The translations under genes and the position numbers were made by a program. A stretch of 64,000 bases of DNA, from positions 7,216 through 71,215 of the forward strand of contig JAUVCH010000002.1 of assembly GCA_030595795.1 (NCBI GenBank), written 5' to 3'. Below are positions 2,836 through 42,461 of this stretch, piece by piece (position 1 is the first letter of the stretch; every line of letters begins with the position of its first letter). A model generated the notes under the pieces. That model did not search any database. It saw only the letters and a program-made list of their open reading frames with translations, and had not been told where the DNA came from. Source of the stretch: Gammaproteobacteria bacterium. Lineage in GTDB: Bacteria > Pseudomonadota > Gammaproteobacteria > GCA-001735895.

Positions 2836-5451
2836 ATGGTCGAACAAACCGAAAAACCACAAGCTACCGAAGCAGAACTTGAGGCGATGATCGCCGCGAC
2901 CGATACCGGGGCGCGAAGCCCTCACGGTGCAGTCGGTAAATTATTGTTGATCACTGCATTTTGCTGGTCGGCTTTTCAGCTCTGGATCGCGTCGCCCTTG
3001 CCTTATATGGATATTTTTTCGTCCTGGCTACCCGTGTTGAATAATACTGACACGCGTTCGATACACCTGGCTTTTGCGATTTCACTGGCCTTTCTGGCTT
3101 ATCCGGCATTGAAAAGTTCGCCACGCGATAGTATTCCCATACAGGACTGGATATTCGCCGCTGCGGGCATCATGGTGACAATGTACCTGTCGGTTTTTGC
3201 GGCCGAACTGGGTGAGCGATCGGGCCTGCCGACTACGCTCGACCTGGTGATGGGGGGCATGGGCGTTGTACTGGTACTCGAGGCAGCACGCCGTGCTCTG
3301 GGACCACCGCTCATGGTGATCGCCGCGATCTTCCTCTGCTATGTGTTTTTTGGTCATTTAGGCCCGGACATTATCGCCTGGAAAGGTGCCTCGTTCGGCA
3401 AGGCCATGTCGCATATGTGGTTGACCCAGGAAGGCGTATTCGGTGTTGCACTCGGTGTCTCTACCTCGATGGTATTCCTCTTTGTCTTGTTTGGTTCGAT
3501 GCTGGAGAAAGCGGGTGCGGGTAATTACTTCATCTGGGTGGCATTTTCTTTATTAGGACATATGAAAGGCGGACCAGCCAAGGCCGCCGTAGTGTCGTCG
3601 GCGTTAACGGGGCTGGTTTCCGGTTCGTCGATCGCGAATGTAGTTACCACGGGTACATTTACCATTCCGTTAATGAAACGGGTTGGCTTTTCCGCAGAAA
3701 AAGCCGGTGCAGTAGAAGTGGCCTCTTCGACTAATGGTCAGTTAACGCCACCTGTTATGGGTGCTGCTGCTTTTTTGATGATTGAATTCGTCGGAATATC
3801 CTATATCGAAGTCATCAAGCATGCATTTCTTCCAGCCATTATTGCCTATATTGCGCTGGTTTATATTGTCCACCTGGAAGCTTCCAAGGCCGGCCTGAAA
3901 GGTTTGAAGAAAACCCAGCAAAGCACTTTTCTGCAAAGTTTGTTTGTGTATGCCACAGTAATCGTTGGCATTATTGTCACATCGGCTATCACTTACTACG
4001 GCTTCGGCTGGTTAAAAGGTGCTGCCGGTGATTTCACCTTCTGGATTGCCTCGGTCATTGTATTGGTAGTTTATGTGTTGCTGGTAAGATTCTCGACCAA
4101 ATTTCCCGAACTCGGGCGTAGCGATACCATTAAAGAATTGCCGGTACCCGGACCGATTGTCAAAGCCGGCCTTTACTACTTGCTGCCGGTACTCGTATTA
4201 ATCTGGTGCCTAACCGTGGAAAGACTTTCTCCGGGACTGTCTGCTTTTTACGCGTCGATATTCATGGCTATCGTATTGCTCACGCACAAGCCGTTGAAGG
4301 CTATTTTCCGTGGTGAGAGCGAACTAACTACCTACTTTAAGGAATGCCGGATCGATTTTGTCGAGGGCATGGTAGCTGGTGCCAGAAATATGATCGGTAT
4401 CGGTGTGGCCACGGCCTGTGCCGGTATTATTCTCGGTACGGTGACGCTGACCGGTATTGGCCTGGTTTTGGCTGAATTCGTCGAGTTTATCTCCGCCGGT
4501 AATTTGATCCTGATGCTGATATTTACCGCCATGATCAGTCTGATACTGGGTATGGGTTTGCCAACCACGGCCAATTATATTGTCGTCTCCTCGCTGATGG
4601 CTCCGGTCATTGTTTCGGTCGGCGCCAGTAATGGTTTGATTGTGCCACTGATAGCGGTTCACCTGTTTGTATTTTACTTTGGCATATTGGCGGACGATAC
4701 ACCCCCGGTGGGGCTGGCGGCTTATGCGGCCGCGGCAATATCAGGCGGTGACCCAATCAAGACCGGCGTGCAGGGCTTCACCTACGATATTCGTACCGGT
4801 ATTTTGCCGTTTATGTTTATTTTCAACACCGAGTTATTGATGATCGGTATTACCGGCCCGATACATCTTATCTCGGTGATTGTCTCGGCCACTGTGGCGA
4901 TGCTGCTTTTTGCCGCCGCGACTCAGGGCTTTTTCTTAACCTTTAATAAGAAATGGGAGACAGTTGCGTTATTGATGATTACCTTCACGCTGTTTCGACC
5001 GGGTTTTTTCATGGACATGATTTACGATCCGTTGGTTAAGGTTGAAGCCAGCCAGATTTATGAAGTTGCCGAACAACAGCCGAAAAATGGCCTGCTACGC
5101 GTGCATGTTGTCGGTGAAACCCTGGAAGGTGATGCAGTCGATAAGGTTGTGATGTTGCCGGTTGGTGATGTCGGCCCTGGTAAAGACCGGTTACAAATGG
5201 CCGCGGGGCTCGAGCTTCGTGAAGAAGACGGTAAATTATTTGTTGATAATATCGTTTTTGGTAGTGCCGCTAATAAGCAGGGACTAGATTTTGACTGGGA
5301 AATCGCCGATGTGCAGAAAAAGGCAGATACGCCCGATAAACGCTGGTTTTATATCCCGGCAATTTTACTGTTGATAGTTGTCTGGAAGGCTCAGGCCGCT
5401 CGACGCGATGAGGATGAAATTTCAGTTGAAACCGGAGCCAGCCATGTATAA
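2836..5451 (+). CDS. TRAP transporter fused permease subunit (TAXI type, DctQ-DctM-like fusion)
   Basis: About 870-aa highly hydrophobic protein immediately downstream of the TAXI receptor. The ORF track starts at GTG 2827, but ATG 2836 sits 8 nt after the AGGAG at 2823-2827 and is preferred. Confidence 0.8.
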   Translation: MVEQTEKPQATEAELEAMIAATDTGARSPHGAVGKLLLITAFCWSAFQLWIASPLPYMDIFSSWLPVLNNTDTRSIHLAFAISLAFLAYPALKSSPRDSIPIQDWIFAAAGIMVTMYLSVFAAELGERSGLPTTLDLVMGGMGVVLVLEAARRALGPPLMVIAAIFLCYVFFGHLGPDIIAWKGASFGKAMSHMWLTQEGVFGVALGVSTSMVFLFVLFGSMLEKAGAGNYFIWVAFSLLGHMKGGPAKAAVVSSALTGLVSGSSIANVVTTGTFTIPLMKRVGFSAEKAGAVEVASSTNGQLTPPVMGAAAFLMIEFVGISYIEVIKHAFLPAIIAYIALVYIVHLEASKAGLKGLKKTQQSTFLQSLFVYATVIVGIIVTSAITYYGFGWLKGAAGDFTFWIASVIVLVVYVLLVRFSTKFPELGRSDTIKELPVPGPIVKAGLYYLLPVLVLIWCLTVERLSPGLSAFYASIFMAIVLLTHKPLKAIFRGESELTTYFKECRIDFVEGMVAGARNMIGIGVATACAGIILGTVTLTGIGLVLAEFVEFISAGNLILMLIFTAMISLILGMGLPTTANYIVVSSLMAPVIVSVGASNGLIVPLIAVHLFVFYFGILADDTPPVGLAAYAAAAISGGDPIKTGVQGFTYDIRTGILPFMFIFNTELLMIGITGPIHLISVIVSATVAMLLFAAATQGFFLTFNKKWETVALLMITFTLFRPGFFMDMIYDPLVKVEASQIYEVAEQQPKNGLLRVHVVGETLEGDAVDKVVMLPVGDVGPGKDRLQMAAGLELREEDGKLFVDNIVFGSAANKQGLDFDWEIADVQKKADTPDKRWFYIPAILLLIVVWKAQAARRDEDEISVETGASHV

Positions 5452-5869
5452 GAAAATCCTATTCCCGATCGATTTACAGCATACTAAGGAAGCAAAAAAA
5501 TCTCTGAAAGTAGCGATTGATGAGGCCAGGCGTTCAAAAGCGAAATTAAGAGTCATGACCGCTGCCACCGGCTTCGGCATGCCCATCGTAGCCTCATTTT
5601 TTGATGATAAAACGGTGAAAAAAGCACTCAAGGAAGTCGCTCGTCAATTGAAGGCTTACGTCGATGAAAATATACCCGATGATATTGAGTCGAGCGCTGT
5701 GGTGGTAGAGGGGAATCCTGCCGAACTGATATTAAAACAGGCGAAAAAAGATAAGATCGATTTAATTGTGATGTCCGCACACAATAGTCAGATCGAAAAT
5801 ATATTGCTCGGTTCCTGCGCGGCTAAAGTGGTGCGACATTCAGATTGCTCTGTCAATGTCGTAAAATAA
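5444..5869 (+). CDS. Universal stress protein (UspA family)
   Basis: About 140 aa, start MYKKILFPIDL. ATG 5444 preceded by GGAG. Overlaps the end of the TRAP permease by 8 nt. Confidence 0.7.
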   Translation: MYKKILFPIDLQHTKEAKKSLKVAIDEARRSKAKLRVMTAATGFGMPIVASFFDDKTVKKALKEVARQLKAYVDENIPDDIESSAVVVEGNPAELILKQAKKDKIDLIVMSAHNSQIENILLGSCAAKVVRHSDCSVNVVK

Positions 5870-15366: not shown

Positions 15367-16106
15367 CCGCAATTATAAACGTCCAGAACGTGTCGAAGTC
15401 CTTCGGCGGCGTGGTTGCGAATCATGACGTATCGCTCACCGTCAAACCAGGAACCATTACCGGATTGATCGGGCCGAACGGCTCGGGCAAAACAACCCTG
15501 TTTAATTCCATCGTCGGTTATCATCCGATTGATTCGGGATCGATCCAGTTTGAAGATGAGGAAATATCGCGCTTGCCGGTGCAACAGATCGCAAGACGGG
15601 GAATGTTGCGTACCTTCCAGCAAACCCGAATCTACGGCGAGATGAACGGTGTCGAGAATATGCTGATATCACTGCCGCATCGCAAGATGAGCATCTGGGA
15701 TGCGCTTAAAAGAAATACTAGTGAAGATTACGAGCGCGCCGATCATCTACTCGAGTTTGTCGGGCTTTACGAAAAAAGAAAGCTGAAAAGCGGGGACCTG
15801 TCCTTTGGCCAGCAAAAGCTGCTCGAATTTGCTATGGCGTTAATGAATGAACCGACCTGCTTGCTGCTCGATGAGCCCACGGCCGGGATCAACCCGACAT
15901 TGATCAATGGTTTGATCGATCGCTTGAAGCTCGCTAACTCCGAGTTTGGTATTACTCTTTTTGTCATCGAGCATAACATGCGCGTGATCATGAATCTGGC
16001 CGAATCGATTTATTGCCTTGCGCACGGCGAATTGCTGGCGCAGGGCACGCCCGACGAAATTCAAAACGACCAGAATGTCATCGACGCTTACCTCGGAGCG
16101 CATTAA
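15363..16106 (+). CDS. ABC transporter ATP-binding protein (LivG-like)
   Basis: Walker A GPNGSGKTT, LSFGQQKLLE signature, Walker B LLLDEP. 4-nt overlap with the permease gene. Confidence 0.85.
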   Translation: MTAIINVQNVSKSFGGVVANHDVSLTVKPGTITGLIGPNGSGKTTLFNSIVGYHPIDSGSIQFEDEEISRLPVQQIARRGMLRTFQQTRIYGEMNGVENMLISLPHRKMSIWDALKRNTSEDYERADHLLEFVGLYEKRKLKSGDLSFGQQKLLEFAMALMNEPTCLLLDEPTAGINPTLINGLIDRLKLANSEFGITLFVIEHNMRVIMNLAESIYCLAHGELLAQGTPDEIQNDQNVIDAYLGAH

Positions 16107-16973
16107 ATGACCGATAACGACAAGGTACGCGGTTACCACGGGGGTAATGTCGATTCGGTCATTTCGGTCGAAGAGGTTACTCGCCAGGCAGCGGCGATTG
16201 CCGAAGATATAACGCTCGAACAGCTCGATGAGCTGGCAGGTAATGAACCGTATTTGTCGATCAATAATCTGGTTGCCGGCTACGGTCAGATGGAGATTCT
16301 GCATAACCTGGATTTGCGAGTCGGTAAGGGGCAGTCTTTGTGTCTGATTGGCCCTAATGGAGCAGGAAAATCGACGATACTTCACGCTATTTTCGGCTTT
16401 AATAGAATATTTTCCGGTTCTATCGAAATTGGTAGCGGTGACGACAAAATGGATGTCACGAGTTTGACGCCGAATCAAAAGTTATCGCAGGCCGGCATCG
16501 CTTATATCCTTCAGGATAAGTCTATTTTTCCCGGTATGACGGTTGAAGAGAATCTATGGATGGGCGGTTTTCTGAAGGACAAACCACAGGAAGCCAAGGT
16601 CGCTGCTGAAGCGGTATTCGATAAGTATTCACGCCTTGCCGATCGGCGTAAACACAAGGCCGGTGTGCTATCCGGTGGCGAAAGACGCTTGCTTGAAATT
16701 TCCCGAGCACTGGTAATGAATCCCGAGATACTGCTTGTCGATGAACCTTCGATTGGTCTCGAACCACGCTTCATCGATATGGTTTTCGATATTCTCGATG
16801 ACCTGCAAAATAATGAAGGCAAGACCATTATCATGGTCGAGCAAAATGCCAAGAAGGGACTCGAGTTTGCCGATATCGGTTATGTGCTGGTTTCTGGCCA
16901 ACTGGCGATTGCCGGTAAGGGTGATGATTTATTGAAGAACCCTAAGGTCGGTGAGTTGTTTTTGGGTGGTTAA
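16107..16973 (+). CDS. ABC transporter ATP-binding protein (LivF-like) with about 50-aa N-terminal extension
   Basis: Walker A GPNGAGKST, signature LSGGERRLLE, Walker B LLVDEP. Confidence 0.85.
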   Translation: MTDNDKVRGYHGGNVDSVISVEEVTRQAAAIAEDITLEQLDELAGNEPYLSINNLVAGYGQMEILHNLDLRVGKGQSLCLIGPNGAGKSTILHAIFGFNRIFSGSIEIGSGDDKMDVTSLTPNQKLSQAGIAYILQDKSIFPGMTVEENLWMGGFLKDKPQEAKVAAEAVFDKYSRLADRRKHKAGVLSGGERRLLEISRALVMNPEILLVDEPSIGLEPRFIDMVFDILDDLQNNEGKTIIMVEQNAKKGLEFADIGYVLVSGQLAIAGKGDDLLKNPKVGELFLGG

Positions 16974-17026: not shown

Positions 17027-19282
17027 TTATTTCTGCGCCATATTTATTATGTGTGGGTTTTCCGACAATGACTTTGACTTTATTCTCAGCTGGCATTGGG
17101 AAAAATAAAAACGGGAAGGTCCATCATGAGGAAAGCTCCTTAATATCGACTTAAATTCTTCGGAAGCCTTTTTCCATTCCGCCCGCATAAACATATCAAA
17201 GCCTTTAGCAAATCGCTCGCAAAGTTCATTTTGTTGTGTGCTAGCTTCATTTGACAAACTAAGTATTTCGATGATGGGCAAGGGTTCGGTTTTCCCCACA
17301 AAAACAAAATGCCCTATGGGGCGAGTCAGTAAATAATCGATGCCTTCAATTTGGGGTTCAGTGGCGAGTATTTGCGTACCCACATGTTTATTTAACCCTT
17401 CAATGCGCGATGCGGTATTAGCACAGTCGCCTACGATACTGTAAACAAAGTGACCGCCACCGCCGGAGTGTCCGACATAAACTTCACCGGTTTCCATACC
17501 GATGCGCAAAGACGCATCAAAAGCATCGTGCCGGGCCTTGAAGTCCTCGATCGCATCAGCAGCTTGCAATGACGCGAGGATAGGCTTTTCACGTACGTCG
17601 ATATCAGATTCATCGCCGGTCCAGGCACACATAATGGCATCCGCGCGGAATTCGGTAACCGTGACATCATGATTACGCAAAGGTTGTGCCAGCGTGTCAA
17701 AATAATCATTTAAAAATTCAGCCAGTTCTCCGGGGGCCATGTTTTCGGCAATAGTCGAAAACCCTGCCATGTCGGTGGCCAGGCAGGTGCTAAAGATGAC
17801 CTGATTAATGTTTTCAGGAATAAGGTCGTTGCCGGTTAAGGCTTTTGATACTTCTTCGGGTACATAAAGACTAATCGCTTCGCTGATGTGTTTTACCTTG
17901 TGGCGCTGTTGTAAATACTGGGCTATCAAGCCGACAAACAACGCCAGAGGGAACTGAACTAGTAAGGGTATCGACAGGGGTAGCCATAGATAATCATTAT
18001 TGAACAGGGTTTGCGCATAAATCACATACCCACTAACAGCCAGAACCGAGACAGGCACGCCTATAATGGCGGGTGCCAGGTAAATTAACAGGCTGATCAT
18101 GAGCCCGAAACTGAATATAAAAATCAGATAGTTTTCAATTTTTGGGACTCTCAGGGACTGATTGTGTCGTAAGTTTCCGTATGCAGTTGCAGCTATCTCG
18201 ACACCGCTAAGATCAACACCATTTTCGTTGGTAAAAACAGTATAAAAGCGATCAGGCTGGCCAGGGTCATACAGATCCGAGAAGCCTACGAATACTACCT
18301 TGTTGGTCATATCCAGATCTTTGGCTGAGGTATTAGCGTCGGGGCCATTGATAACCGCGTAGTAGGGAACGCTTTTGATCGATCCGGGCGTTCCATAAAA
18401 ATTTAGATAACGTTCGTTCCTTCCAAGGTACATAGAAGTCAGCGAATGGAGTAATTGCTGAATTTCCTCGGATTCTTGCCCGACCCAGGGTTGTTGTAGT
18501 TCTCGTATCAAATTGTTTGCCAGGGTCGGAGATCGAGAAAGAGTACTCCGGATTCCAGTCATGAACCCATGCAGAGATTCTGCATCAGATATTTCGGCTG
18601 CAGATTGAGGGATTTTAAACTCCTGAGTCAATCGACTGTTCTTGAGTAAACGGTAAAATTGATTGTAGGCCTTTAGCGCTTGTACCTGTAATGCCACGGC
18701 GGGCATCGTAGGTGCTCCATACGCGCTATCTTTAAAGACCCAAGATTCGTAAACGGCCGCCTCTTGCTTGGGTAAGGGAAAAGGCCCCAGGCCTCGAGCG
18801 GCTTCCGACAGGACCGGCACAGGTGACAGAAGCTGTTCTACCCACACACTGCCACTGATTTTCCCCGATTTATCTTCAATCGGATTACCTTTGCCGGTCA
18901 GATACTGAAAAAGCACGACTCGTTCCGAGCGCTTTACTGAATCAGCAAAAATCTTTTCGTCACCTGGCGAACGTGGTTTGTGGAAATTAATATCAAAAAC
19001 AATAGTGGATGCGCCCAGTTTCACCAGAGCATCGACCAGCTTTCCGTGAATTGATCGGGGCCAGTCCCGGGGTAGCGGGGGGATATTCAGTTTCTTGCTG
19101 GTTAAACCATTGATTGCAATTACAACAGTTTCCGGCGGGGAGGGGATTTCACCGCGAATGGAAAATAACCAGCCCAGTCCAATGCTTCTTTCAAAAACTG
19201 TTCCGTAGGGTGACAGAGCTAACAGGCTACCAATCAAACCTATCGTCATGCCAAGGAGCAGACCTTTAATACCGCGTCGCAT
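17027..19282 (-). CDS. CHASE2 sensor domain-containing class III adenylate/guanylate cyclase
   Basis: 751 aa. N-terminal TM, then a large periplasmic CHASE2-like domain. Three TM helices follow (approx. aa 380-450). C-terminal cyclase homology domain (FSTCLATDMAGFS...GDCANTASRIEGLNK). Confidence 0.8.
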   Translation of the reverse strand: MRRGIKGLLLGMTIGLIGSLLALSPYGTVFERSIGLGWLFSIRGEIPSPPETVVIAINGLTSKKLNIPPLPRDWPRSIHGKLVDALVKLGASTIVFDINFHKPRSPGDEKIFADSVKRSERVVLFQYLTGKGNPIEDKSGKISGSVWVEQLLSPVPVLSEAARGLGPFPLPKQEAAVYESWVFKDSAYGAPTMPAVALQVQALKAYNQFYRLLKNSRLTQEFKIPQSAAEISDAESLHGFMTGIRSTLSRSPTLANNLIRELQQPWVGQESEEIQQLLHSLTSMYLGRNERYLNFYGTPGSIKSVPYYAVINGPDANTSAKDLDMTNKVVFVGFSDLYDPGQPDRFYTVFTNENGVDLSGVEIAATAYGNLRHNQSLRVPKIENYLIFIFSFGLMISLLIYLAPAIIGVPVSVLAVSGYVIYAQTLFNNDYLWLPLSIPLLVQFPLALFVGLIAQYLQQRHKVKHISEAISLYVPEEVSKALTGNDLIPENINQVIFSTCLATDMAGFSTIAENMAPGELAEFLNDYFDTLAQPLRNHDVTVTEFRADAIMCAWTGDESDIDVREKPILASLQAADAIEDFKARHDAFDASLRIGMETGEVYVGHSGGGGHFVYSIVGDCANTASRIEGLNKHVGTQILATEPQIEGIDYLLTRPIGHFVFVGKTEPLPIIEILSLSNEASTQQNELCERFAKGFDMFMRAEWKKASEEFKSILRSFPHDGPSRFYFSQCQLRIKSKSLSENPHIINMAQK

Positions 19283-19630
19283 AAGTTTAGTGTCTATAGT
19301 TTTTAAATATTATTTTAGTCGCATCACTCACCGATGCGAAATCTACCTTACATGAAATTTTTTTTCAGCGTTAAGGTTTTAGCGAAAAGAAATTGCTATC
19401 AGTCCGCTGAATCCGGATTTTATATTTATCACTTATTACGAATAATAAATCAGTTAACATTATTATTTAGGTAGGTTGTCTATGACAATCGCTATCCGTT
19501 GTATAATCCTTTAGGGGTAGAGCACTGCTCCAATATTCGTCATATGATTTAGTTATAAAAATATAATCAAAAAAAACAAATAAGAATGCCATGCAAATGC
19601 AGGCATCGAAGTTTATTGGAGGGGGACGCG
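19283..19630. promoter_or_regulatory. AT-rich divergent promoter region between the CHASE2 cyclase and the FecR/TPR/barrel gene
   Basis: About 300 bp, over 70% AT. Perfect TATAAT at about 19508 preceded by TTGTCT/TGACAA-like -35 candidates. GGAGGGGGA Shine-Dalgarno at 19618-19626. Confidence 0.4.
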
Positions 19631-22600
19631 TTGTTTACTTTATCGGTTCGATTTTATTCGAAATTAATCACTATATTCTTCATAACTCTGGTCGGTATAT
19701 CTGTCAGCAGACCAGCTATGGCCGCATGCGCCGAACTAGCAGGGAAATTCGTCTCCATCCAGGGCCAGGTAGATGTTCAGGCTCAGAATGGAAGTGCCTG
19801 GGATCTCGCCAAACTTGATGACGCTCTATGCGAAGGGGACAGTGTAAGGGTTGGTAAAGAAAGTCGAGCGGCTCTTTCTCTTGCAAATGATGCCGTACTG
19901 CGAATCGATGAAAACACAACCGTTCGGCTGGTTGATATAAATCAGGAGAAAAAAGAAAAATCACTTCTCGAACTGATATCGGGAGCAATCCAGTCTTTCA
20001 GCCGTAAACCTCGTGAGTTAGTAGTCAATACGCCATATCTCAATGGTTCTATCGAGGGTACTGAATTTATTATTAAAGTCGCTGACAACCAGACCCAGAT
20101 TACCGTATTTGAAGGTTTTGTCGTCGCGGCTAATGACCAGGGGGAAGTTCGGCTGGAGAGCGGACAGTCGGCTTCGGCCAGCGAGGGTAGCGCACCGGTA
20201 TCTCGAACCGTGATCAATCCCCGGGATCAGGTGCAGTGGGGATTATATTATCCGCCAATACTGTCGGCGGAAGGCGGCGCCAACGAACAGCGAGCCGCCG
20301 AATTACTGGCTTTAGGACAGATTAACGAAGCCAGTCAGATACTTGAAAGTGGTGCGGATTCACCGGTTGGGTTAGCCCTGCAGTCGGTAATTGCAATCAC
20401 TCTGAATGACCTGGAGGGGGCTCAGAATTACGCCGATAGAGCCGCTGCCCTGGACGCCAGCAGTGTCGCAGTAGCTATTGCTATGTCTTACGTGAAACAG
20501 GCACGGTTCGAACTAGAGCAGGCTCTGGCGGTCATTGACGCGGCGTTGCAGAAAGAATCTGGCAATGCATTACTGTGGGCTCGCGCTGGAGAATTGCGCC
20601 TGATGTCGGGGTTGAGCAGTGAGGCATTATCAGCAGCGAATAAAGCCAGCGAACTGGATCCGAATTCATCGCAGGCTAATCTGGTCAATGGTTTTGCTGC
20701 TTTATCGATTTTCGATACCGATCAGGCCGCGAGTAGTTTCAAAAATGCCATTGCACTCAATTCAGCTGATCCGATGGGTTACCTGGGACAGGGGTTGACT
20801 AAAATTAGCCAGGGTGATCTAGAAACCGGTCGCCATGACCTCGAAGTCGCTGTGAGCCTCGGTTCCAATAGTGCAATACTCCGCTCTTATCTGGGTAAAG
20901 CCTATTACGAAGAAAAGCGTAGTCCGCTGGAAGATCAGCAGTATAAAATTGCCCAACAACTCGATAGCAACGACCCGACCCCGTGGTTCTATCAGTCGAT
21001 TTCACAGCAAACACAAAATAATCCGGTAGAGGCCTTACAGAGTCAGCAAAAAGCGTTTGAGTTGAATGATAACCGCGCAGTTTATCGTTCGCGACTGTTG
21101 CTTGATTCTGACCGCGCAGCGCGCGGTGTTAGTTTGGGTCGGGTTTATAACGATCTGGGGTTTGAGCAACAAGCATTGGCGGAAGGTTGGAAATCAGTTA
21201 ATACCGATCCAACCAATTCCTCGGCGCATTTGTTTCTAGCCGACTCTTATGGAGCGTTACCGCGCCATGAAATCGCCAGAGTCAGCGAAGCGCTACAGGC
21301 TCAGATGTTGCAACCGGTTAATGCAGCTCCCGTTAGCCCAACCAAAGCGGAAGGTAAATTATTACTAGCTGCCAGTGGCCCCGCAGCAGTTGGATTCAAT
21401 GAATACAATGCGCTATTTGACCGTAATCAGACCAACGCGGTGATCAGTGGTATGGCGGGTGAGCATGGAACCAGTAGTGCAGAAGCTATAGTCTCGGGCT
21501 TACACGGTAAAACGGCATTCAGTGCAGGTATTTATCACTTTGAGACTGACGGTTTTCGTGACAGTGCTTTTCAGGAAGATGATATTGGCAACCTGTTCGT
21601 CCAGCATGATTTTAGTCTGGATACTAGTGTTCAGCTCGAATTCCGCTCGAGAGAAACCGAATACGGTGATGTTCGCCAGAAATTTCATGAGCATAGTATT
21701 TATCCAGACAAGTTAATTGTCGAGGAAACCGATACGCTACGTCTGGGTGCACGGCATTCTTTTGCGCCGGGGTCGGTGCTTCTTGTGTCACTAACTGATC
21801 AGGAAGGTAGCTTTAACGAGACCGATGAACCCTTCCCTCAGCCGGGGGTTCTCTTTTCCGAACTCGATAGCCCTGATCTTGAAGCAAAAGGCAGCGAGCT
21901 CCAGTACCTGTATCGTTCGCCTAAATTCAATGTTACTGCTGGTGTAGGTAATGTTGATTCTAAGGAGGATGTAACGAATAGAGCTTTACTTGATTTAGGC
22001 TTTTTTGGTGGTCCGCCTGGACTTTTATTGCCAATAGAAAGCGTCATTGAGGCAGATATCAAGCACGATAATGCTTATGCGTATTCGAATATCAATCTGA
22101 ACAACCAGATGATCATGACGCTTGGCGTTAGCTATGATGATGTTGATAGTGAATTTCTTGGAGAACCTGTAACGAAAACTAATCCAAAATTTGGCATGAC
22201 ATGGACACCGAATTCACAGACTACGGTGCGTTTGGCATCCTTCGAAACCATGAAACGTACCTTGTCTACGCAACAGACTCTGGAACCGACCCAGGTAGCT
22301 GGTTTTAATCAATTCTTCGATGACTATAACCTGACCGAAACAAAGCGCACAGGTATTGCGGTTGATTACAAATTTAATGCTAACCTGTCAGGTGGGCTGG
22401 AAATTTCAAAGCGGGAACTGGAGATACCCTACGTTGATTTGACCGCTTCACCACCCACGATAGAGGCTGCTGACTGGGAAGAGCGAACGAACCGAGCCTA
22501 TCTCTACTGGACACCCAATAAACAATGGGCACTGCGGGCTGAATATCTGTTTGAAAAACTGGAAAGGGGAGGCGGCACCTTTGTTGATGGTGTCATTGAA

Positions 22601-22921
22601 TCGGAGACGCATCGAGTTCCTTTTGGAGTCAGTTACTTTCACTCCGACAGGCTAAGTGCCTCTCTGACAGCGACTTATTATGATCAGGAGGGAGTATTCG
22701 GTGGTTTCTGGACCACGGATGCCATAGAGCCGGGTGAAGATGATTTCTGGATCGTCGATGCTGCGATTAATTACCTGCTACCCGGGAGGCGAGGTTTCGT
22801 CACAGTCGGTGCGACTAATTTAACCGATGAGGATTTCTCGTATTTCGACACGGACACGAATAACGCCAGCATACAACCCGCAAGCATGGTGTATGGCAAG
22901 TTGACATTATCGTTCCAATAA
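19631..22921 (+). CDS. Secreted FecR-domain / TPR / C-terminal beta-barrel protein (putative outer-membrane sensor or scaffold)
   Basis: ORF 19586..22921. Preferred start is TTG 19631, 8 nt after GGAGG, giving a classic signal peptide MFTLSVRFYSKLITIFFITLVGISVSRPAMA|A. Residues about 45-170 are FecR-like (VRVGKESRAALSLANDAVLRIDENTTVRL...GTEFII). Residues about 230-560 are TPR-like. The C-terminal about 500 aa has an alternating beta-strand pattern and ends KLTLSFQ, like an OM barrel. Confidence 0.65.
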   Translation: MFTLSVRFYSKLITIFFITLVGISVSRPAMAACAELAGKFVSIQGQVDVQAQNGSAWDLAKLDDALCEGDSVRVGKESRAALSLANDAVLRIDENTTVRLVDINQEKKEKSLLELISGAIQSFSRKPRELVVNTPYLNGSIEGTEFIIKVADNQTQITVFEGFVVAANDQGEVRLESGQSASASEGSAPVSRTVINPRDQVQWGLYYPPILSAEGGANEQRAAELLALGQINEASQILESGADSPVGLALQSVIAITLNDLEGAQNYADRAAALDASSVAVAIAMSYVKQARFELEQALAVIDAALQKESGNALLWARAGELRLMSGLSSEALSAANKASELDPNSSQANLVNGFAALSIFDTDQAASSFKNAIALNSADPMGYLGQGLTKISQGDLETGRHDLEVAVSLGSNSAILRSYLGKAYYEEKRSPLEDQQYKIAQQLDSNDPTPWFYQSISQQTQNNPVEALQSQQKAFELNDNRAVYRSRLLLDSDRAARGVSLGRVYNDLGFEQQALAEGWKSVNTDPTNSSAHLFLADSYGALPRHEIARVSEALQAQMLQPVNAAPVSPTKAEGKLLLAASGPAAVGFNEYNALFDRNQTNAVISGMAGEHGTSSAEAIVSGLHGKTAFSAGIYHFETDGFRDSAFQEDDIGNLFVQHDFSLDTSVQLEFRSRETEYGDVRQKFHEHSIYPDKLIVEETDTLRLGARHSFAPGSVLLVSLTDQEGSFNETDEPFPQPGVLFSELDSPDLEAKGSELQYLYRSPKFNVTAGVGNVDSKEDVTNRALLDLGFFGGPPGLLLPIESVIEADIKHDNAYAYSNINLNNQMIMTLGVSYDDVDSEFLGEPVTKTNPKFGMTWTPNSQTTVRLASFETMKRTLSTQQTLEPTQVAGFNQFFDDYNLTETKRTGIAVDYKFNANLSGGLEISKRELEIPYVDLTASPPTIEAADWEERTNRAYLYWTPNKQWALRAEYLFEKLERGGGTFVDGVIESETHRVPFGVSYFHSDRLSASLTATYYDQEGVFGGFWTTDAIEPGEDDFWIVDAAINYLLPGRRGFVTVGATNLTDEDFSYFDTDTNNASIQPASMVYGKLTLSFQ

Positions 22922-23144: not shown

Positions 23145-23909
23145 ATGATGAAGAAAGTAATATTCTTGAGTGTTTTTCTATGCGTAGTAAGTACGGGGGC
23201 CCATGCTTGGTCTTACGGTGTGAGTTGGTATTCGGATATTGACTTCACGTTTGCCGCAAAAGGCAATAAATTAAAACTCGCGAATGGTAATTTCGTGGTC
23301 AGCGAGGTCTACGCTTTCAATTATGTGTCTATATGTATTGCTACCAATTCGAATAAAAAGACGATTCATAATGGTCAAGGTAATAATGGTGACAGCGTTG
23401 TAATCGCCGAGTTAGGTGAGGAGAATACAGACGATTCTGGTAAAAATAAAGGATCCTTCTTTGCAACGGGAACGCAATCATTGGTAAATATGTACCAGCA
23501 TTATAGTCTTTTTAATGGAATAAGCGGGGATGGATCGTTGAGTTGTTATGAAGGTGATAGTCCGTTAAATGCTCCGACGGGAAATTGCACGGAGGAAGAT
23601 AGAAGCCTGTCGCATTTGGAACACTTTTGTCATGCCGAAGCAGATCAAAAGGTTGAATATAAAGATAACCTGTATATGCCGGAAATCGCAGTGTATGTCC
23701 GGGTTGTAGAGGGTGATGGGGTTAATCCGGTACTAGTTGATGGTGAATATATCGTCAAAGCGCACGGCATAGCCGAATGTACATACACTGGAGCCGTATC
23801 GCTGGATAATGGCGATTTTGTTACCGAAACGAAGCCTACGGACTGCGATGTAAACGAATATCCATTGTCAGTAGAGGATCCACGCTTTGATCATATTCTC
23901 AGTTTTTAA
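23145..23909 (+). CDS. Secreted hypothetical protein (8 Cys) in an AT-rich islet
   Basis: 254 aa with signal peptide MMKKVIFLSVFLCVVSTGAHA. Local GC about 35% versus about 50% elsewhere. No family recognised. Confidence 0.5.
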   Translation: MMKKVIFLSVFLCVVSTGAHAWSYGVSWYSDIDFTFAAKGNKLKLANGNFVVSEVYAFNYVSICIATNSNKKTIHNGQGNNGDSVVIAELGEENTDDSGKNKGSFFATGTQSLVNMYQHYSLFNGISGDGSLSCYEGDSPLNAPTGNCTEEDRSLSHLEHFCHAEADQKVEYKDNLYMPEIAVYVRVVEGDGVNPVLVDGEYIVKAHGIAECTYTGAVSLDNGDFVTETKPTDCDVNEYPLSVEDPRFDHILSF

Positions 23910-24769: not shown

Positions 24770-25600
24770 ATGTTCGATACCAACCCTTTTTACGATTTGT
24801 CAGGTTTCCTGACGCCGGCCATTATGCAAATGTATGTTGTAGCCATGTTCCTGGCTGTGATCGCCGGTACCATCATCGATACGATTCACAAGAAGAGCGC
24901 TCAGTACTTCTTTGAGAACGCTCAAAAGGCTCAGAAATCTGCCACGCGTACCGTAACTGGCGGCGAGAAGGTTTCATTGGCTATTTCTACCGTGGCCAGC
25001 GAGGTGCTGACTTCTTCTGAGTTTGCCAACCCAAAACGTCGCATGTCGCATTTACTGACTATGTATGGTTTCATTATTTTCCTTGTCACTACTGTGGCCA
25101 TGATTTTTGCTTACCCGACACCTGCTGAAGCCGCCCCTGAAATACTCACGGTTCTGTGGCATGTCGGTGCTCTAATGGTCTGTGTCGGCGGCTACTGGTT
25201 CTGGTTCTTCATCCGTTGCGATGTAAATTCCGAGGGTAAGCCCTGGTATCAGCTGGTTCGTGCTGACCTGTTCATCCTTTCATTGTTGATGACCGCCACC
25301 TTTGCCCTGCTGTGGTCTTACTTCGGCGGTATTTTACTGTTCACCATCTTCATTCTGGCCAGTACCTTTTTGTTTACTACCGTATTGTGGTCAAAGTTTG
25401 CTCATATGTTCTTCAAGCCAATGGCGGCCTACCAGAAGAAAATCACCAAGGCAGATGGTTCGCAAGAGAATCTTCCCGATTTGGGTGAGCTTACAGATCC
25501 TGATCTTCAAGCCAGATTTCCAGATATCCCGACATATATGGGTGAAAAACCAGTCCATATGGGACTTGGAATAAAGCGTGAATCTCCAAACCATTTCTAA
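24770..25600 (+). CDS. aprM: Adenylylsulfate reductase membrane anchor AprM
   Basis: 276-aa, 5-TM protein immediately upstream of aprB and aprA, the arrangement described for aprMBA in sulfur-oxidising gammaproteobacteria. Identity inferred from synteny plus topology. Confidence 0.65.
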   Translation: MFDTNPFYDLSGFLTPAIMQMYVVAMFLAVIAGTIIDTIHKKSAQYFFENAQKAQKSATRTVTGGEKVSLAISTVASEVLTSSEFANPKRRMSHLLTMYGFIIFLVTTVAMIFAYPTPAEAAPEILTVLWHVGALMVCVGGYWFWFFIRCDVNSEGKPWYQLVRADLFILSLLMTATFALLWSYFGGILLFTIFILASTFLFTTVLWSKFAHMFFKPMAAYQKKITKADGSQENLPDLGELTDPDLQARFPDIPTYMGEKPVHMGLGIKRESPNHF

Positions 25601-25652
25601 TCAAACAATTGCTGAATTGTAATTAACCAATAATTTAAGAAAGAGGAATATT

Positions 25653-26135
25653 ATGCCTACATTTGTATATATGACTCGTTGCGATGGTTGTGGACATTGC
25701 GTTGATATCTGTCCTTCAGACATCATGCACATCGACAAAACCACGCGTCGTGCGTACAACATCGAACCAAACATGTGCTGGGAATGCTACTCATGTGTTA
25801 AAGCCTGCCCTCACAATGCCATCGACGTTCGTGGTTACGCAGACTTTGCGCCACTAGGTCACTCGGTACGCGTTATCCGTGATGAAGAAAAAGGTGTTAT
25901 TGCGTGGCGGATCAAATCCCGTAACGGCGAAACCGACATGAATCTGCTCGCACCTATCACAACAAAGCCCTGGGGTACGGCAATTCCAAAACTAGCTGAT
26001 GCACCTGCACCCAGCCAGGAAATGCGTGATAGCCAATTGTTATTTAACGAGCCTAAATATATTCGTATGGATGAGGGCGATATCCATACATTGGAGTCTA
26101 ACAAGCTCACGATGAAAGTTGGAGTTTACTACTAA
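25653..26135 (+). CDS. aprB: Adenylylsulfate reductase beta subunit (iron-sulfur) AprB
   Basis: 160 aa. MPTFVYMTRCDGCGHCVDICPSDIM...CWECYSCVKACPHNAI two [4Fe-4S] motifs plus the AprB-specific C-terminal tail. Confidence 0.9.
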   Translation: MPTFVYMTRCDGCGHCVDICPSDIMHIDKTTRRAYNIEPNMCWECYSCVKACPHNAIDVRGYADFAPLGHSVRVIRDEEKGVIAWRIKSRNGETDMNLLAPITTKPWGTAIPKLADAPAPSQEMRDSQLLFNEPKYIRMDEGDIHTLESNKLTMKVGVYY

Positions 26136-28000
26136 TGCCTAAAACTATCATAGAAGACAATATCGACGTCCTGGTCGCGGGCGCTGGCCTCGGTGGAACC
26201 GGTGCGGCTTTCGAAGCACGCTACTGGGGTAAAGATAAGAAGATCGTTATCGCCGAAAAAGCCAACATCGACCGTTCCGGCGCTGTGGCACAAGGGCTAT
26301 ACGCGATCAACTGTTACATGGGAACTCGTTTCGGTGAAAACAATCCTGAAGATCACGTGCGTTATGCACGTATGGATTTAATGGGTATGGTTCGCGAAGA
26401 CCTGTTGTTTGATATGGCCAGGCACGTCGACTCAACCGTGCACCAGTTCGAAGAATGGGGTCTGCCAATCATGCGCGATCCTAAGAGTGGATCCTATCTA
26501 CGCGAAGGACGCTGGCAGATCATGATTCACGGCGAGTCCTACAAGCCTATCGTGGCTGAAGCCGCAAAGAAATCGGCTGACAAGGTATTCAACCGTATTT
26601 GTGTCACCCATCTGCTAATGGATGATGCCAAAGAAAATCGGGTTGCCGGAGCTGTCGGCTTCAACGTACGTACTGGCGACTATCACGTATTCAAATCTAA
26701 AGCCGTTATCGTTGGTGCCGGTGGCGCATCCAACATCTTCAGGCCACGTTCGGTTGGTGAAGGTGCGGGTCGTGTCTGGTATGCACCCTGGTCCTCGGGC
26801 TCAGCCTATGGTTTGATGATCAATGCTGGCGCGAAAATGACCCAGATGGAAAACCGTATTGTACTGGCTCGATTCAAAGATGGTTACGGCCCGGTTGGTG
26901 CTTACTTTCTACATTTAAAAACTTACACTCAAAACTGTAATGGTGAAGAGTACGAGTCAAAGTGGTTTCCTGAACTGACGAAAATGGTGGGTAAGGAATA
27001 CCTGGATACAGAAGGTCAGCATTTATCGCATAAGCCAATTCCAACCTGTCTGCGTAACCATGCATTTATCAATGAGGTGAATGCTGGTCGTGGTCCTATC
27101 CACATGGTTACCATGGAAGCCTTCCAGGATCCACATCTGGAAGAGATCGGCTGGCACAACTTCCTCGGTATGACCATTGGTCAGGCTGTATTATGGGCGG
27201 CAACTGATGTCAATCCGAAGTACGAGAACCCAGAACTGACAACCTCCGAGCCGTACGTCATGGGTTCCCACGCAACCGGTAGTGGTGCCTGGTGTTCCGG
27301 TCCTGAAGATATCTCTCCTGACGAGTATTTCTGGGGCTATAACCGTATGACTACCGTCGAAGGTCTATTCGGTGCCGGTGACGCTGTTGGCGGTACACCG
27401 CATGCATTCTCTTCAGGCTCATTTACCGAAGGTCGCCTGGCTGCCAAGGCTGCCTGTAAGTACATTGACGATGGTAAGGCCGATGGTATTCGTGTTTCTC
27501 AGGAGCAGATCGATCGTCGCAAGAAAGAGATCTTCAAGCCAATGGAGCATTACAAGGTTTACCGTAACGAAATAACAGCGGGAAGTGTTAACCCTAACTA
27601 CATCAACCCGCGCCAGGGTCTTGATCGCTTGCAGAAGCTGATGGACGAGTACGCCGGTGGTGTAATAGTTAACTACATGACCAACGATAAGCTTTTGCAC
27701 ATCGGTCTGAAGAAATTGAAACTCCTGGAAGAGGATCTTGAGAAGGTTGCAGCAGAGGACATTCACGAACTACTTCGTGCATGGGAACTGAAGCATCGTC
27801 ATCTTACCTCTGAGTCTGTCGTGCAACATACCCTGTTCCGCAAGGAAACCCGTTGGCCGGGTTACTACTACCGCGGTGATGCGATGAAACTGGATGATGA
27901 GAACTGGCATGTACTGACAGTTTCCCATCGTGATCCAAAAACTGGTGAATACACCATGGAAAAAGCACCTCTTTATCACCTTGTAGACGATAAAGAATAG
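26135..28000 (+). CDS. aprA: Adenylylsulfate reductase alpha subunit (FAD) AprA
   Basis: 621 aa. DVLVAGAGLGGTGAAFEA FAD fold, fumarate-reductase-family flavoprotein. Start overlaps the aprB stop (ATGA). Confidence 0.9.
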   Translation: MPKTIIEDNIDVLVAGAGLGGTGAAFEARYWGKDKKIVIAEKANIDRSGAVAQGLYAINCYMGTRFGENNPEDHVRYARMDLMGMVREDLLFDMARHVDSTVHQFEEWGLPIMRDPKSGSYLREGRWQIMIHGESYKPIVAEAAKKSADKVFNRICVTHLLMDDAKENRVAGAVGFNVRTGDYHVFKSKAVIVGAGGASNIFRPRSVGEGAGRVWYAPWSSGSAYGLMINAGAKMTQMENRIVLARFKDGYGPVGAYFLHLKTYTQNCNGEEYESKWFPELTKMVGKEYLDTEGQHLSHKPIPTCLRNHAFINEVNAGRGPIHMVTMEAFQDPHLEEIGWHNFLGMTIGQAVLWAATDVNPKYENPELTTSEPYVMGSHATGSGAWCSGPEDISPDEYFWGYNRMTTVEGLFGAGDAVGGTPHAFSSGSFTEGRLAAKAACKYIDDGKADGIRVSQEQIDRRKKEIFKPMEHYKVYRNEITAGSVNPNYINPRQGLDRLQKLMDEYAGGVIVNYMTNDKLLHIGLKKLKLLEEDLEKVAAEDIHELLRAWELKHRHLTSESVVQHTLFRKETRWPGYYYRGDAMKLDDENWHVLTVSHRDPKTGEYTMEKAPLYHLVDDKE

Positions 28001-35846: not shown

Positions 35847-36383
35847 ATGGGTGATATTCATTTGGAGGATTTTAATCAAACCCTGCCGCGGCAGAAAACT
35901 GTGTCAGCGGTAATTGAAAAGCGTGCCTCTGATAATGTCTGGTTAGACTTTACTTACAAAGCTATCGGTGTGGTGGTTGGTGAAGCTGGGCAGGAAAAGC
36001 AGGTTAAGCGGATATATCAGGACGGTAAGGTAGAGCATTTCCTGGTCACCGGGCTGGAGCTCAGGCTTCACGAAGATGAATGCGAGAGCTACTATCATAA
36101 TTTAATGTCACCGAAACCGGGTTGTTTTATCGTAGCTGAGGCCGTAGATGACCCGGATGAAATGCCGGTGCCCTACCTGGTGAGTTTGAGTTTTGATGAA
36201 GTCCATGCCTATCTCGAAGGCGACGAACAGGTTTACGCAGTAGAGATTCCCGCCGAGCTATATCAGTGGGCTGAAGCCTATGTGTTAACGCATTATGTCG
36301 CGATCAAAAAGACCAAACGAAAATTGAGGAACTGGACAGAGGAAGCCTCGGTAGCTGGAAAAGGCGCGCAAAAAACATCATGA
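35847..36383 (+). CDS. DUF3305-like protein (FDH-locus associated)
   Basis: 178 aa. First gene of the FDH-oriented block, overlaps the next gene by 4 nt. Family name recalled from memory. Confidence 0.5.
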   Translation: MGDIHLEDFNQTLPRQKTVSAVIEKRASDNVWLDFTYKAIGVVVGEAGQEKQVKRIYQDGKVEHFLVTGLELRLHEDECESYYHNLMSPKPGCFIVAEAVDDPDEMPVPYLVSLSFDEVHAYLEGDEQVYAVEIPAELYQWAEAYVLTHYVAIKKTKRKLRNWTEEASVAGKGAQKTS

Positions 36384-36967
36384 GCCAGAAGGAAGAGGAA
36401 GGCCTGTTATCGCGCTGGTCACGACGTAAATTACAAACACAGGAAGAGAGCCTCAAGGAAGAAGCAGTTTTGGCCACAGAACACCCGGATGTCGTCAATG
36501 CGATCAGTGTTGATGCGCCGCAGGCCGAAGTGCCCGACCAACCAGTTCTATCTGACGAAGATATGCCACCCATCGAATCGCTTACCGAAGACTCGGATTT
36601 TAGCGGATTCATGTCCTCAGGAGTGAGCGATAAATTACGCAATTTGGCTTTGCGAAAAATGTTTCATGCGCCGGTTTTCAATATACGTGATGGCCTCGAT
36701 GAATACGACGAAGACTATACATTTTTCGAACCGCTGGGTGATATTGTCACTTGTGATATGAAGCATCAAGTCGAAATGCTGGAGAAGAAGCGACTTGAAG
36801 AAGCGGAGCTGGAGGCGGCTGAAGAGCCAGTCGAAGCCGAGCTTGAGCCAGTCGAAGCTGAGCTTGAGCAGGCCGACGATGAGGATGATGAGCCCGAGCT
36901 TATCGACGACGAACCCGAACAACCCGAACAACCCGATCAAAGTGATATAACAGTAGAAAAATTATGA
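36380..36967 (+). CDS. DUF3306-like acidic protein (FDH-locus associated)
   Basis: 195 aa. N-terminal LSRWSRRK, very acidic C-terminal region (EAELEAAEEPVEAELEPVEAELEQADDEDDEPELIDDE). 4-nt overlap with both neighbours. Confidence 0.5.
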   Translation: MSQKEEEGLLSRWSRRKLQTQEESLKEEAVLATEHPDVVNAISVDAPQAEVPDQPVLSDEDMPPIESLTEDSDFSGFMSSGVSDKLRNLALRKMFHAPVFNIRDGLDEYDEDYTFFEPLGDIVTCDMKHQVEMLEKKRLEEAELEAAEEPVEAELEPVEAELEQADDEDDEPELIDDEPEQPEQPDQSDITVEKL

Positions 36968-38523: not shown

Positions 38524-38632
38524 TATGTAAGTTATTTATTACCCATTATGGTTATAAATAGTTATTATTCCCCTATATATTTTGGAATGCAGGTTGCTAT
38601 ATATTTTGGATAAAAACAATGAAACCGAAGAC

Positions 38633-39295: not shown

Positions 39296-39338
39296 GTTGT
39301 TGATAGCAATCTAATCGACCTTTCGAGGGGAGTATCTG

Positions 39339-39545
39339 GTGAAAAAGACAAATGAGACGTTAAACAATAATAGACGGGATTTCATAAAGAAATCAGCTCT
39401 GGTTGGTGTGGGTGTCGCTGCCAGTACGGTCGCAAGTGGCGAGGCCATGGCGGCAGTGACGACTGACACTGTCGAAACCGGGAAAAATAAAGGCTATCAA
39501 CTAACACAACATGTTGCTGATTATTACAAATCAGCAGCAAGCTAA
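39339..39545 (+). CDS. Small twin-arginine signal protein ('formate dehydrogenase region TAT target' type)
   Basis: 68 aa, NNNRRDFIKKSALVGVGVAA Tat motif. GTG start after GAGGGGAG. Confidence 0.55.
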   Translation: MKKTNETLNNNRRDFIKKSALVGVGVAASTVASGEAMAAVTTDTVETGKNKGYQLTQHVADYYKSAAS

Positions 39546-39563
39546 ACGCGAGGAGATTGAAAT

Positions 39564-42443: not shown

Positions 42444-42461
42444 CTAGCGAGGAACTATAAA

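Follow-up and report, generated by a model that had tools for sequence, protein, structure and literature searches.

A CHASE2 nucleotide cyclase gene divergently aligned with a gene for a FecR/TPR/beta-barrel outer-membrane protein: a probable NsrA-CyaK-type signalling module in a gammaproteobacterium

Genes and proteins of the divergent locus

The stretch of DNA analysed here, referred to as the window, covers 64,000 nucleotides of contig JAUVCH010000002.1 (positions 7,216 to 71,215 of the forward strand) in the Gammaproteobacteria bacterium assembly GCA_030595795.1. Within the window, the gene for a class III nucleotide cyclase with a CHASE2 sensor domain is divergently aligned with the gene for a long exported protein, composed of a FecR-like domain, a TPR array and a C-terminal beta-barrel, and a gene for a small secreted protein is located downstream from the latter (Table 1). 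The three genes are likely to form a trans-envelope signalling module of the type known as NsrA-CyaK in Sinorhizobium meliloti, with cyclic GMP (cGMP) as the most probable product in this lineage. A first-pass annotation, made from the nucleotide sequence, had proposed the exported protein as the input device for cyclic-nucleotide synthesis, and had named three findings that would speak against the idea: lack of conserved synteny, failure of the FecR and CHASE2 assignments in domain searches, and a globular C-terminal region instead of a barrel. All three were examined and none was encountered; the synteny is conserved across phyla, both domain assignments are supported, and the C-terminal region is modelled as a barrel.

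The cyclase gene encodes a protein of 751 amino acids (aa), as first annotated, in which Pfam searches detected CHASE2 (PF05226, E = 4.2e-21, aa 36-395) and Guanylate_cyc (PF00211, E = 3.6e-11, aa 500-631). A total of 1168 homologues were found at E <= 1e-10. Hydropathy analysis identified three segments, aa 4-26 (transmembrane helix TM1), aa 382-424 (43 residues, corresponding to two helices) and aa 431-458 (one helix), giving a predicted topology of TM1, a periplasmic CHASE2 domain, three transmembrane helices within aa 382-458, a cytoplasmic cyclase domain and a C-terminal helical tail. With the basic N-terminus taken as inside, the positive-inside rule would put CHASE2 on the periplasmic side of the membrane and the cyclase domain on the cytoplasmic side.

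The closest solved structure to the catalytic domain is that of Cya2 from Synechocystis PCC 6803 (2W01, E = 2.2e-12), a CHASE2-regulated bacterial guanylate cyclase (PMC6005667). In the alignment to Cya2, residues D504, E544, D548, S615, N622 and R626 of the window cyclase fall on Asp448, Glu488, Asp492, Gly562, Asn569 and Arg573, respectively (Cya2 numbering from the table in PMC6005667), and by this mapping all six catalytic residues are intact. The metal-binding residues Asp504 and Asp548 and the transition-state residues Asn622 and Arg626 are invariant across 115 aligned sequences, and the motifs TEFRAD, YS and NTASR are kept in 113-115 of these 115 homologues. The base-specifying position, located within TEFRAD, is Glu544, with Glu in the window protein and in 113 of 114 relatives; adenylate cyclases including CyaK carry Lys at the aligned position. 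The second specificity position of the window cyclase is Ser615. The pairs Glu-Cys/Ser and Glu-Gly are associated with GTP and the pair Lys-Asp/Thr with ATP (PMC6005667), and the substitution E488K switches Cya2 to ATP, making it an adenylate cyclase (PMC5995499). Since the base-specifying pair is Glu/Ser, not Lys with Asp or Thr, and since Cya2 is the closest structural match, the window cyclase is predicted to use GTP and to make cGMP. The first-pass annotation had left the product as cAMP or cGMP; its nucleotide cyclase stands, and the likely product can be narrowed to cGMP on the basis of Glu544 and Ser615. Cya2 shares both the CHASE2 sensor and the Glu at the base-specifying position with the window cyclase, and differs in having Gly at the second specificity position, where eukaryotic guanylate cyclases have Cys or Ser (PMC6005667).

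The long gene is an open reading frame (ORF) of 1111 aa at 19586-22921(+), opening at ATG 19586, so that the length of 1100 aa given in the first-pass annotation needs correction. Translation probably begins at TTG 19631, giving 1096 aa, because GGAGGGGG is located 5' of this codon and the N-terminus obtained in this way, MFTLSVRFYSKL..., matches in position the start of homologue P0007 (61 % identical). The TTG start yields a signal peptide ending in AMA, followed by AC. The NCBI protein P0001 (1067 aa) begins at Met45 of the ORF, inside the signal peptide, which this start would remove; in comparison with the homologues, TTG 19631 is the better fit. Residue numbers of the outer-membrane protein refer throughout to the 1096-aa form.

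The FecR-like N-terminus and the TPR array of the first-pass annotation were both recovered by Pfam hidden Markov models (HMMs), FecR as PF04773 (E = 2.1e-13) and the array as several TPR models. Among the scored candidates more than 2,500 relatives were found at E <= 1e-5, the top 120 being full length with 45-75 % identity. Using an alignment of 118 full-length homologues (46-72 % identity), AlphaFold2 gave a model with a mean predicted local distance difference test score (pLDDT) of 90 and a predicted template-modelling score (pTM) of 0.88, in which a signal helix is followed by an all-beta domain (aa 36-193), paired helices (aa 217-560), a 39-residue coil with a poorly predicted middle (pLDDT <50 at aa 579-587) and a beta-barrel (aa 600-1096). 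A Foldseek search against the PDB returned TonB-dependent transporters, FpvA (2e-18) followed by FhuE, PqqU, OprC and FecA, and the N-terminal domain was identified by fold search as the FecR/PupR signalling fold. Model and matches together bear out the apparent barrel of the first-pass annotation, the C-terminal region being modelled as a beta-barrel and not as a globular domain. Many homologues carry PF00593, the TonB-dependent receptor barrel. The Plug domain (PF07715) gave no match in the window protein at E <= 0.1, and the model shows nothing plug-like between the TPR array and the barrel. The barrel would have 22 strands if the DSSP segments 766-778/780-788 and 799-807/810-824 each count as one strand; under this reading the periplasmic turns are of 2-5 residues and the loops are longer, which is the usual pattern of outer-membrane barrels.

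Two cysteines, Cys33 and Cys67, co-occur in 113 of the 118 sequences and are a probable disulfide pair. In the homologues, Cys33 is separated from Ala-x-Ala by 2-4 residues, most of them polar or charged. The possibility that Cys33 is a lipoprotein cysteine was considered and rejected, since polar or charged residues predominate at -3 to -1 and since Cys33 varies together with Cys67.

Conservation within the protein is highest in the last helices of the array (aa 479-560, mean 0.90); the linker to the barrel has a mean of 0.80. Within the barrel, the loop at aa 875-902 (QTLEPTQVAGFNQFFDD) hardly varies between phyla, its mean conservation of 0.88 being above that of the strands (0.62); of the other ten loops, six are at 0.22-0.44 and four at 0.58-0.77. 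This loop is partly retained in NsrA as TLAPVGIVGLQPNQF, the shared motif being TLxP...G..NQF. By strand parity in the model the loop should face outside. Loops facing the environment are usually variable, and for this reason the loop is more readily understood as buried or mechanistic; it may lie in the barrel lumen together with the linker.

The two genes are separated by a spacer of 303 bp if the long gene starts at the ATG, or of 348 bp with the TTG start, with a G+C content of 0.33-0.35 against about 0.45-0.52 in the flanks, in agreement with the AT-rich divergent region of about 300 bp in the first-pass annotation. Promoter-like hexamers are no more frequent in this region than in shuffled sequence, and an Rfam search of it gave no match at E <= 1. 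A three-way alignment of the spacers of the window and of two related loci, L005 and L084, revealed one short conserved block. This block, GAATCTACC.TA.CT with TCAC before it, is located at about 19335-19360, near the cyclase start, and could be an operator or an element of the 5' untranslated region.

Table 1. Positions of the features of the locus within the window
Feature	Position	Strand	Basis or remark
CHASE2-sensor class III nucleotide cyclase gene	17027..19282	(-)	751 aa; ORF and Pfam
CHASE2 domain, predicted periplasmic, aa 36-395	18098..19177	(-)	PF05226, E 4.2e-21; between TM1 and TM2
Cyclase catalytic domain, about aa 490-670	17273..17815	(-)	PF00211; residues mapped on Cya2 2W01
AT-rich divergent intergenic region, presumed site of both promoters	19283..19630	(.)	G+C 0.33-0.35
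NsrA-like outer-membrane protein gene, 1096 aa from TTG 19631	19631..22921	(+)	ORF opens at ATG 19586
Type I signal peptide, aa 1-31, ...SRPAMA followed by AC	19631..19723	(+)	Hydrophobic segment aa 8-33
FecR/PupR-like beta domain, periplasmic, aa 36-193, probable Cys33-Cys67 disulfide	19736..20209	(+)	
TPR/helical array, aa 217-560	20279..21310	(+)	
Conserved TPR-to-barrel linker, aa 561-599, poorly modelled	21311..21427	(+)	pLDDT <50 at aa 579-587; mean conservation 0.80
22-stranded plug-less outer-membrane beta-barrel, TonB-dependent-transporter type, aa 600-1096	21428..22918	(+)	
28-residue barrel loop, aa 875-902, between strands 13 and 14	22253..22336	(+)	Sequence KRTLSTQQTLEPTQVAGFNQFFDDYNLT; conservation 0.88
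Small secreted Cys/His-rich protein gene, 254 aa, probable third module component	23145..23909	(+)	Predicted signal peptide

Conservation of the pair and its accessory genes

A scan of one genome per species yielded at least 600 pattern matches, of which at least 550 were confirmed to encode a relative of the outer-membrane protein, and 80 loci were kept. The lineages among the loci listed include Gammaproteobacteria, Burkholderiales, Desulfobacterota, Nitrospirota, Rokubacteria, Binatia, Spirochaetia, Dadabacteria and others. Using four CHASE2 cyclases as tblastn queries, 60 of the 80 loci were found to have a CHASE2 protein at a distance of up to 8 kb; apart from the loci with another transducer, those without a match are mostly on short contigs. 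When the comparison was confined to the 46 loci with enough flanking sequence (at least 3 kb upstream and at least 4 kb downstream), the adjacent gene encoded a CHASE2 protein in 40, a HAMP-PAS-GGDEF-EAL protein in 5 and neither in 1. A membrane signalling protein is thus adjacent in 45 of 46 loci, indicating that the gene pairing is not a chance adjacency. Two long contigs, with gene calls labelled by Pfam, gave independent support for the pairing. The recurrence of FecR and CHASE2 proteins as neighbours, given as established in the first-pass annotation, is documented in the literature (PMC5192318, PMC9239204). The divergent order is common to the window and its closest, gammaproteobacterial relatives; the commonest arrangement overall is the cyclase gene followed by the outer-membrane gene on the same strand.

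The transducer is variable in kind. In L010, L011 and L019 the CHASE2 partner carries a SpoIIE/PP2C phosphatase domain in place of the cyclase, and in L007, L008, L015, L018 and L056 the order is the outer-membrane gene, a small gene and the gene for a HAMP-PAS-GGDEF-EAL protein. From these gene contents the outer-membrane input unit looks modular. Because five loci pair it with a sensor other than CHASE2, contact between FecR and CHASE2 cannot be the sole mode of coupling.

The partner cyclases that could be aligned keep the catalytic Asp, Asp, Asn and Arg, except for L053, which has Val at the Asn position. The base-specifying pair differs by clade: Glu/Ser in the clade of the window and Glu/Gly in several loci with the cyclase downstream. 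An upstream cyclase mostly has Asn or Asp combined with Arg, and Lys/Thr or Lys/Asp was rarely seen. The Glu/Ser type also occurs in L003/L012, from the Cellvibrionaceae isolate SEMH9. For the distant clades these pairs are read from one MAFFT alignment and may be off by one residue. Among the loci between L022 and L082 that have the cyclase upstream on the same strand, most cyclases of Desulfobacterota and Nitrospirota, with Asn or Asp plus Arg, fit neither the adenylate nor the guanylate rule; the product of this group is unpredictable, and its assignment depends on the alignment.

Co-divergence was also considered as evidence of contact. The distances of the CHASE2 domain correlate with those of the FecR domain (r 0.53), the TPR array (0.32) and the barrel (0.35), but the cytoplasmic cyclase domain correlates better still (0.63), so that the correlation reflects clade structure, not contact, and this line of evidence was rejected.

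The 254-aa ORF at 23145-23909 begins 224 bp after the long gene, and no terminator-like site was found between 22921 and 23145. Its product has a signal peptide, 7 Cys and several invariant His, and gave no Pfam match. Relatives are few, 9 among 5.8 billion clusters and 11 representatives in an exhaustive profile search. The longest contigs of three of them, P0243, P0246 and P0247 (14465, 8080 and 8281 bp), have the sizes of the contigs that carry the outer-membrane homologues L005, P0005 and P0004, respectively, and in L005 the small gene was seen in place beside the outer-membrane gene. Including the window, 53 of 82 loci have an ORF of at least 90 aa that starts no more than about 450 bp beyond the end of the outer-membrane gene, and in many cases this ORF encodes a signal peptide and several cysteines; if the transducer gene is downstream, it is separated from the outer-membrane gene by the small gene. 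Based on its position and features, 23145-23909 probably encodes a third component of the module. All-against-all phmmer comparison grouped the downstream small proteins into clusters of 20, 7 and 3 plus smaller ones. A first hhalign comparison of the clusters found similarity in the signal peptide only. After remote relatives were added, the window cluster matched the cluster of 20 with HMM E-values of 3e-6 and 2e-6 (in tiny databases) and an hhalign probability of 64 %, making homology between these two possible; the cluster of 7 is unlinked to the others. An AlphaFold2 model of the 254-aa protein from an 8-sequence alignment was unusable (pLDDT 38). That the small protein serves as a co-receptor, a specificity factor or a barrel plug is speculation.

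A gene for a glutaminase fused to a cyclic nucleotide monophosphate (cNMP)-binding domain is located within a few kb in L001, L003/L012, L013, L020, L028, L030, L048, L051, L064, L070 and L077 (for instance at 12328-14163 in L001 and at 5685-7514 in L003, the latter also with STAS). Whenever the cyclase type of a glutaminase locus is known, the residue at the base-specifying position is Glu. Among loci with a strong glutaminase match and a typed or recognised partner, 8 of 9 are of the Glu type (L051 has no detectable cyclase), in comparison with none of about 25 loci of the Asn/Asp type. The cNMP-binding glutaminase is a candidate effector. No glutaminase-cNMP protein was found in the literature.

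Relation to NsrA-CyaK and alternative readings

A tblastn search of plasmids gave matches in Sinorhizobium/Ensifer-type replicons only. The match on S. meliloti pSymB is an ORF of 1224 aa with FecR, TPRs and a weak beta-barrel match, with a CHASE2 cyclase gene directly behind it; the positions and descriptions of the two genes identify them as nsrA and cyaK. NsrA is described as an outer-membrane beta-barrel receptor protein required for nodule-signal transduction via CyaK and CyaD1/D2, its barrel being placed at about aa 600-1200, with uL2, a ribosomal protein, as the candidate signal (PMC7529298, PMC13001267). The profile of the window family aligns with NsrA over its full length (hhalign probability 99.9 %, E = 1.6e-34, 973 columns, query 35-1091, NsrA 48-1208), and BLASTP gave collinear segments in the FecR and TPR regions and among the C-terminal strands. 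NsrA has the same order of parts as the window protein, signal peptide, FecR, TPRs and C-terminal barrel, and in both systems the neighbouring gene encodes a CHASE2 class III cyclase. NsrA exceeds the window protein by 128 aa, its TPR region containing additional sequence, and does not have the Cys33/Cys67 pair; no small secreted-protein gene lies between nsrA and cyaK, whereas the window has one downstream. CyaK carries the adenylate-type Lys, and NsrA-CyaK(-CyaD1/CyaD2) feeds the cAMP/Clr pathway of S. meliloti; with Glu in its place, the window cyclase is predicted to depart from a cAMP product. The differing nucleotide is regarded as an output variant and does not exclude the window from the NsrA-CyaK module type. 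S. meliloti is a plant symbiont, whereas the host of the window is a gammaproteobacterium with adenosine phosphosulfate (APS) reductase genes (aprBA), and a plant or uL2 signal is unlikely to be the natural cue in the latter.

Other known systems share parts of this architecture. FecA-FecR-FecI and PupB-PupR use the same two elements, a barrel of the TonB-dependent-transporter type and a periplasmic FecR/PupR fold, as separate proteins, whereas in the window protein they are fused in one polypeptide. In comparison with Fec and Pup, the locus lacks the plug, the STN domain (by Pfam), a cytoplasmic anti-sigma domain and an extracytoplasmic function (ECF) sigma factor, and its output is a cyclic nucleotide instead of sigma-factor release. 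Of the features of FecR-type anti-sigma factors the FecR fold is present, whereas the set of a cytoplasmic anti-sigma domain, a single transmembrane helix and a partner ECF sigma gene is not, and a cleavable signal peptide replaces the N-terminal cytoplasmic domain; no sigma-factor family was found among the Pfam-scanned neighbours of the pair. In the Burkholderia "BiofilmReg" operon a LysM-FecR protein is encoded with a CHASE2 histidine kinase (PMC5192318); there the FecR protein is periplasmic with LysM and the output is two-component, while in the window FecR is fused to TPR and barrel. The Campylobacterota cluster encodes a CHASE2 cyclase, a phosphodiesterase, a FecR-domain outer-membrane protein and a separate TPR protein (PMC9239204), whereas FecR, TPR and barrel are one protein in the window.

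Based on these comparisons, we can propose a mode of action for the NsrA-CyaK-type module. The C-terminal plug-less barrel of the exported 1096-aa protein would be inserted in the outer membrane, with the TPR array and the FecR/PupR-like domain in the periplasm, and the cyclase would reside in the inner membrane with its CHASE2 domain facing the periplasm. A cue would be received at or through the outer-membrane protein, the periplasmic part of which would contact the periplasmic sensor domain of the cyclase and thereby act on the cytoplasmic cyclase dimer, leading to altered synthesis of a cyclic nucleotide, most likely cGMP. The small secreted protein encoded downstream may take part in the relay. 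The FecR/TPR-CHASE2 contact, the direction of the signal, the cGMP product and the role of the small protein are all inferred. The literature on the S. meliloti homologue suggests by analogy that the outer-membrane protein is needed for signal perception by CHASE2 cyclases. The input-device model of the first-pass annotation is thus supported, being the same as that for the homologous NsrA-CyaK, a module type already described, of which the window is a further member with a variant output and unstudied accessories. The statement that signal and partner function are uncharacterised is out of date for the family, given the genetics of NsrA-CyaK, and holds for the organism of the window.

Several observations weigh against this proposal. 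The window protein is only about 23 % identical to NsrA, and the catalytic cores of the cyclases share only 32 %; nsrA and cyaK abut on the same strand, in contrast to the divergent pair of the window. The outer-membrane protein itself falls short of Pfam PF00593. The five GGDEF-EAL partners are without CHASE2, their periplasmic domain of about 170 aa being not CHASE2 by HMM. As to cGMP, Ala506 stands at the position of Arg450 of Cya2, the conserved Lys that follows the catalytic core, normally part of a KG motif, has moved by one residue to give GK, and the Pfam cyclase score is weak (43 bits). As to a receptor, tblastn found no glutaminase-cNMP gene in the window. Of its 49 listed ORFs with 150 aa or more, 46 were scanned with Pfam and had no cNMP_binding domain, the other three (5378-5869, 15840-16478 and 37873-38394) all overlapping longer ORFs.

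Three alternatives were weighed, all of them ranking below an NsrA-CyaK-type relay in support. The outer-membrane protein might tether or hold the inner-membrane sensor through its TPR/FecR arm and report on the state of the envelope, such as integrity, periplasmic width or assembly stress, and not on an external molecule. The spread of the family over many free-living phyla, the combination of one outer-membrane protein family with different transducers, the shortness of most other barrel loops, and the near-invariance of the longest loop (0.88) and the linker (0.80), unlike a surface adapting to ligands, all fit such a sensor. We nevertheless consider it unlikely: in the one homologue studied, perception of added uL2, a specific protein signal, requires NsrA and CyaK, and overproduction of NsrA raises the sensitivity of the bioassay (PMC7529298), and the variable small secreted protein encoded next door could provide ligand specificity.

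The order of a periplasmic TPR array and a C-terminal barrel also recalls export or assembly pores such as BcsC, PgaA and PelB, with the cyclase only regulating or monitoring a pore that might carry the small Cys-rich protein as cargo. A plug-less barrel of 22 strands would be wide enough for a protein or a polymer, and a small secreted protein is encoded directly downstream in many loci. The barrels of BcsC, PgaA and PelB are smaller, however, and the window barrel matches TonB-dependent transporters and not these exopolysaccharide porins; the N-terminal domain has the FecR/PupR signalling fold, and the gene that recurs beside it from phylum to phylum encodes a signalling protein. Next to the pair are genes for an ABC transporter and aprBA, and none for glycosyltransferases or polymer synthesis; nsrA and cyaK, moreover, have no small gene between them. 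A role in export is thus somewhat less probable still than one in sensing the envelope state. An ordinary TonB-dependent nutrient transporter or transducer beside an unrelated cyclase is very improbable, and was already disfavoured. The matching barrel fold, the name "TonB-dependent receptor" given to some homologues by the sources and the presence of an ExbB-ExbD-TonB cluster about 30 kb away in the window would agree with it, but the Plug domain is missing, TPR helices and then a coil precede the barrel, no ECF sigma or anti-sigma genes are nearby, and a membrane signalling neighbour is kept in 45 of 46 loci across phyla.

A wider version of the NsrA-CyaK-type reading can be offered only tentatively, since we regard it as rather doubtful. 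The FecR/TPR/plug-less barrel protein would be a common input unit in hundreds of species of at least eight phylum-level groups, combined with a fast-evolving small Cys-rich protein as specificity co-factor and with swappable transducers, namely CHASE2 guanylate or adenylate cyclases, CHASE2-PP2C proteins and HAMP-PAS-GGDEF-EAL proteins; the output in the clade of the window would be cGMP, acting in relatives on the cNMP-binding glutaminase, and the loop at aa 875-902 together with the linker would replace the plug and gate the barrel.

Signalling from the cell surface to the inner membrane in Gram-negative bacteria is well understood for few systems, such as the Fec type and Rcs. For NsrA-CyaK the genetics come from one symbiont and the mechanism is unsolved; the locus described here shows that the device is widespread, conserved and modular. 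Its occurrence in a gammaproteobacterium, probably a sulfur oxidiser, and in many uncultured lineages turns a rhizobial curiosity into a general question. The model, with its FecR fold, TPR arm and plug-less barrel, the invariant loop and the linker provide targets for mutagenesis and structural work. cGMP is a rare messenger in bacteria; if the Glu/Ser cyclases make cGMP, they would add many new bacterial examples, together with the cNMP-binding glutaminase as a candidate effector.

Other genes in the window

Downstream from the module, within 24770-28000, the genes for APS reductase are located, aprB (beta subunit) at 25653-26135(+) and aprA at 26135-28000(+), preceded by an ORF of 276 aa without a Pfam match that may encode a membrane anchor such as AprM. 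The aprBA genes point to a sulfur-oxidising or sulfate-reducing lifestyle, the former being the probable one, and the closest relatives of the locus are gammaproteobacterial metagenome-assembled genomes.

A co-directional cluster at 46666-56923(+) encodes three TPR proteins (691, 1059 and 203 aa), ExbB, two ExbD and a 468-aa TonB_C protein. Its distance from the pair is about 24 kb; no link between this cluster and the pair was established. The region at 57-64 kb was considered as a gene desert or ribosomal RNA, and both were rejected, since it is occupied by one giant ORF (57143-64000(+), at least 2285 aa, running off the end of the window) with DUF11, DUF7507 and DUF7619, probably encoding a large surface protein. 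The genes at 35847-46168(+) encode DUF3305 and DUF3306 proteins, an Fe-S protein, a Nitrate_red_del-type chaperone, a 959-aa molybdopterin oxidoreductase, a ferredoxin-like subunit, a cytochrome b561-type protein and a CCG-domain Fe-S protein, and by these assignments look like a molybdoenzyme respiratory complex.

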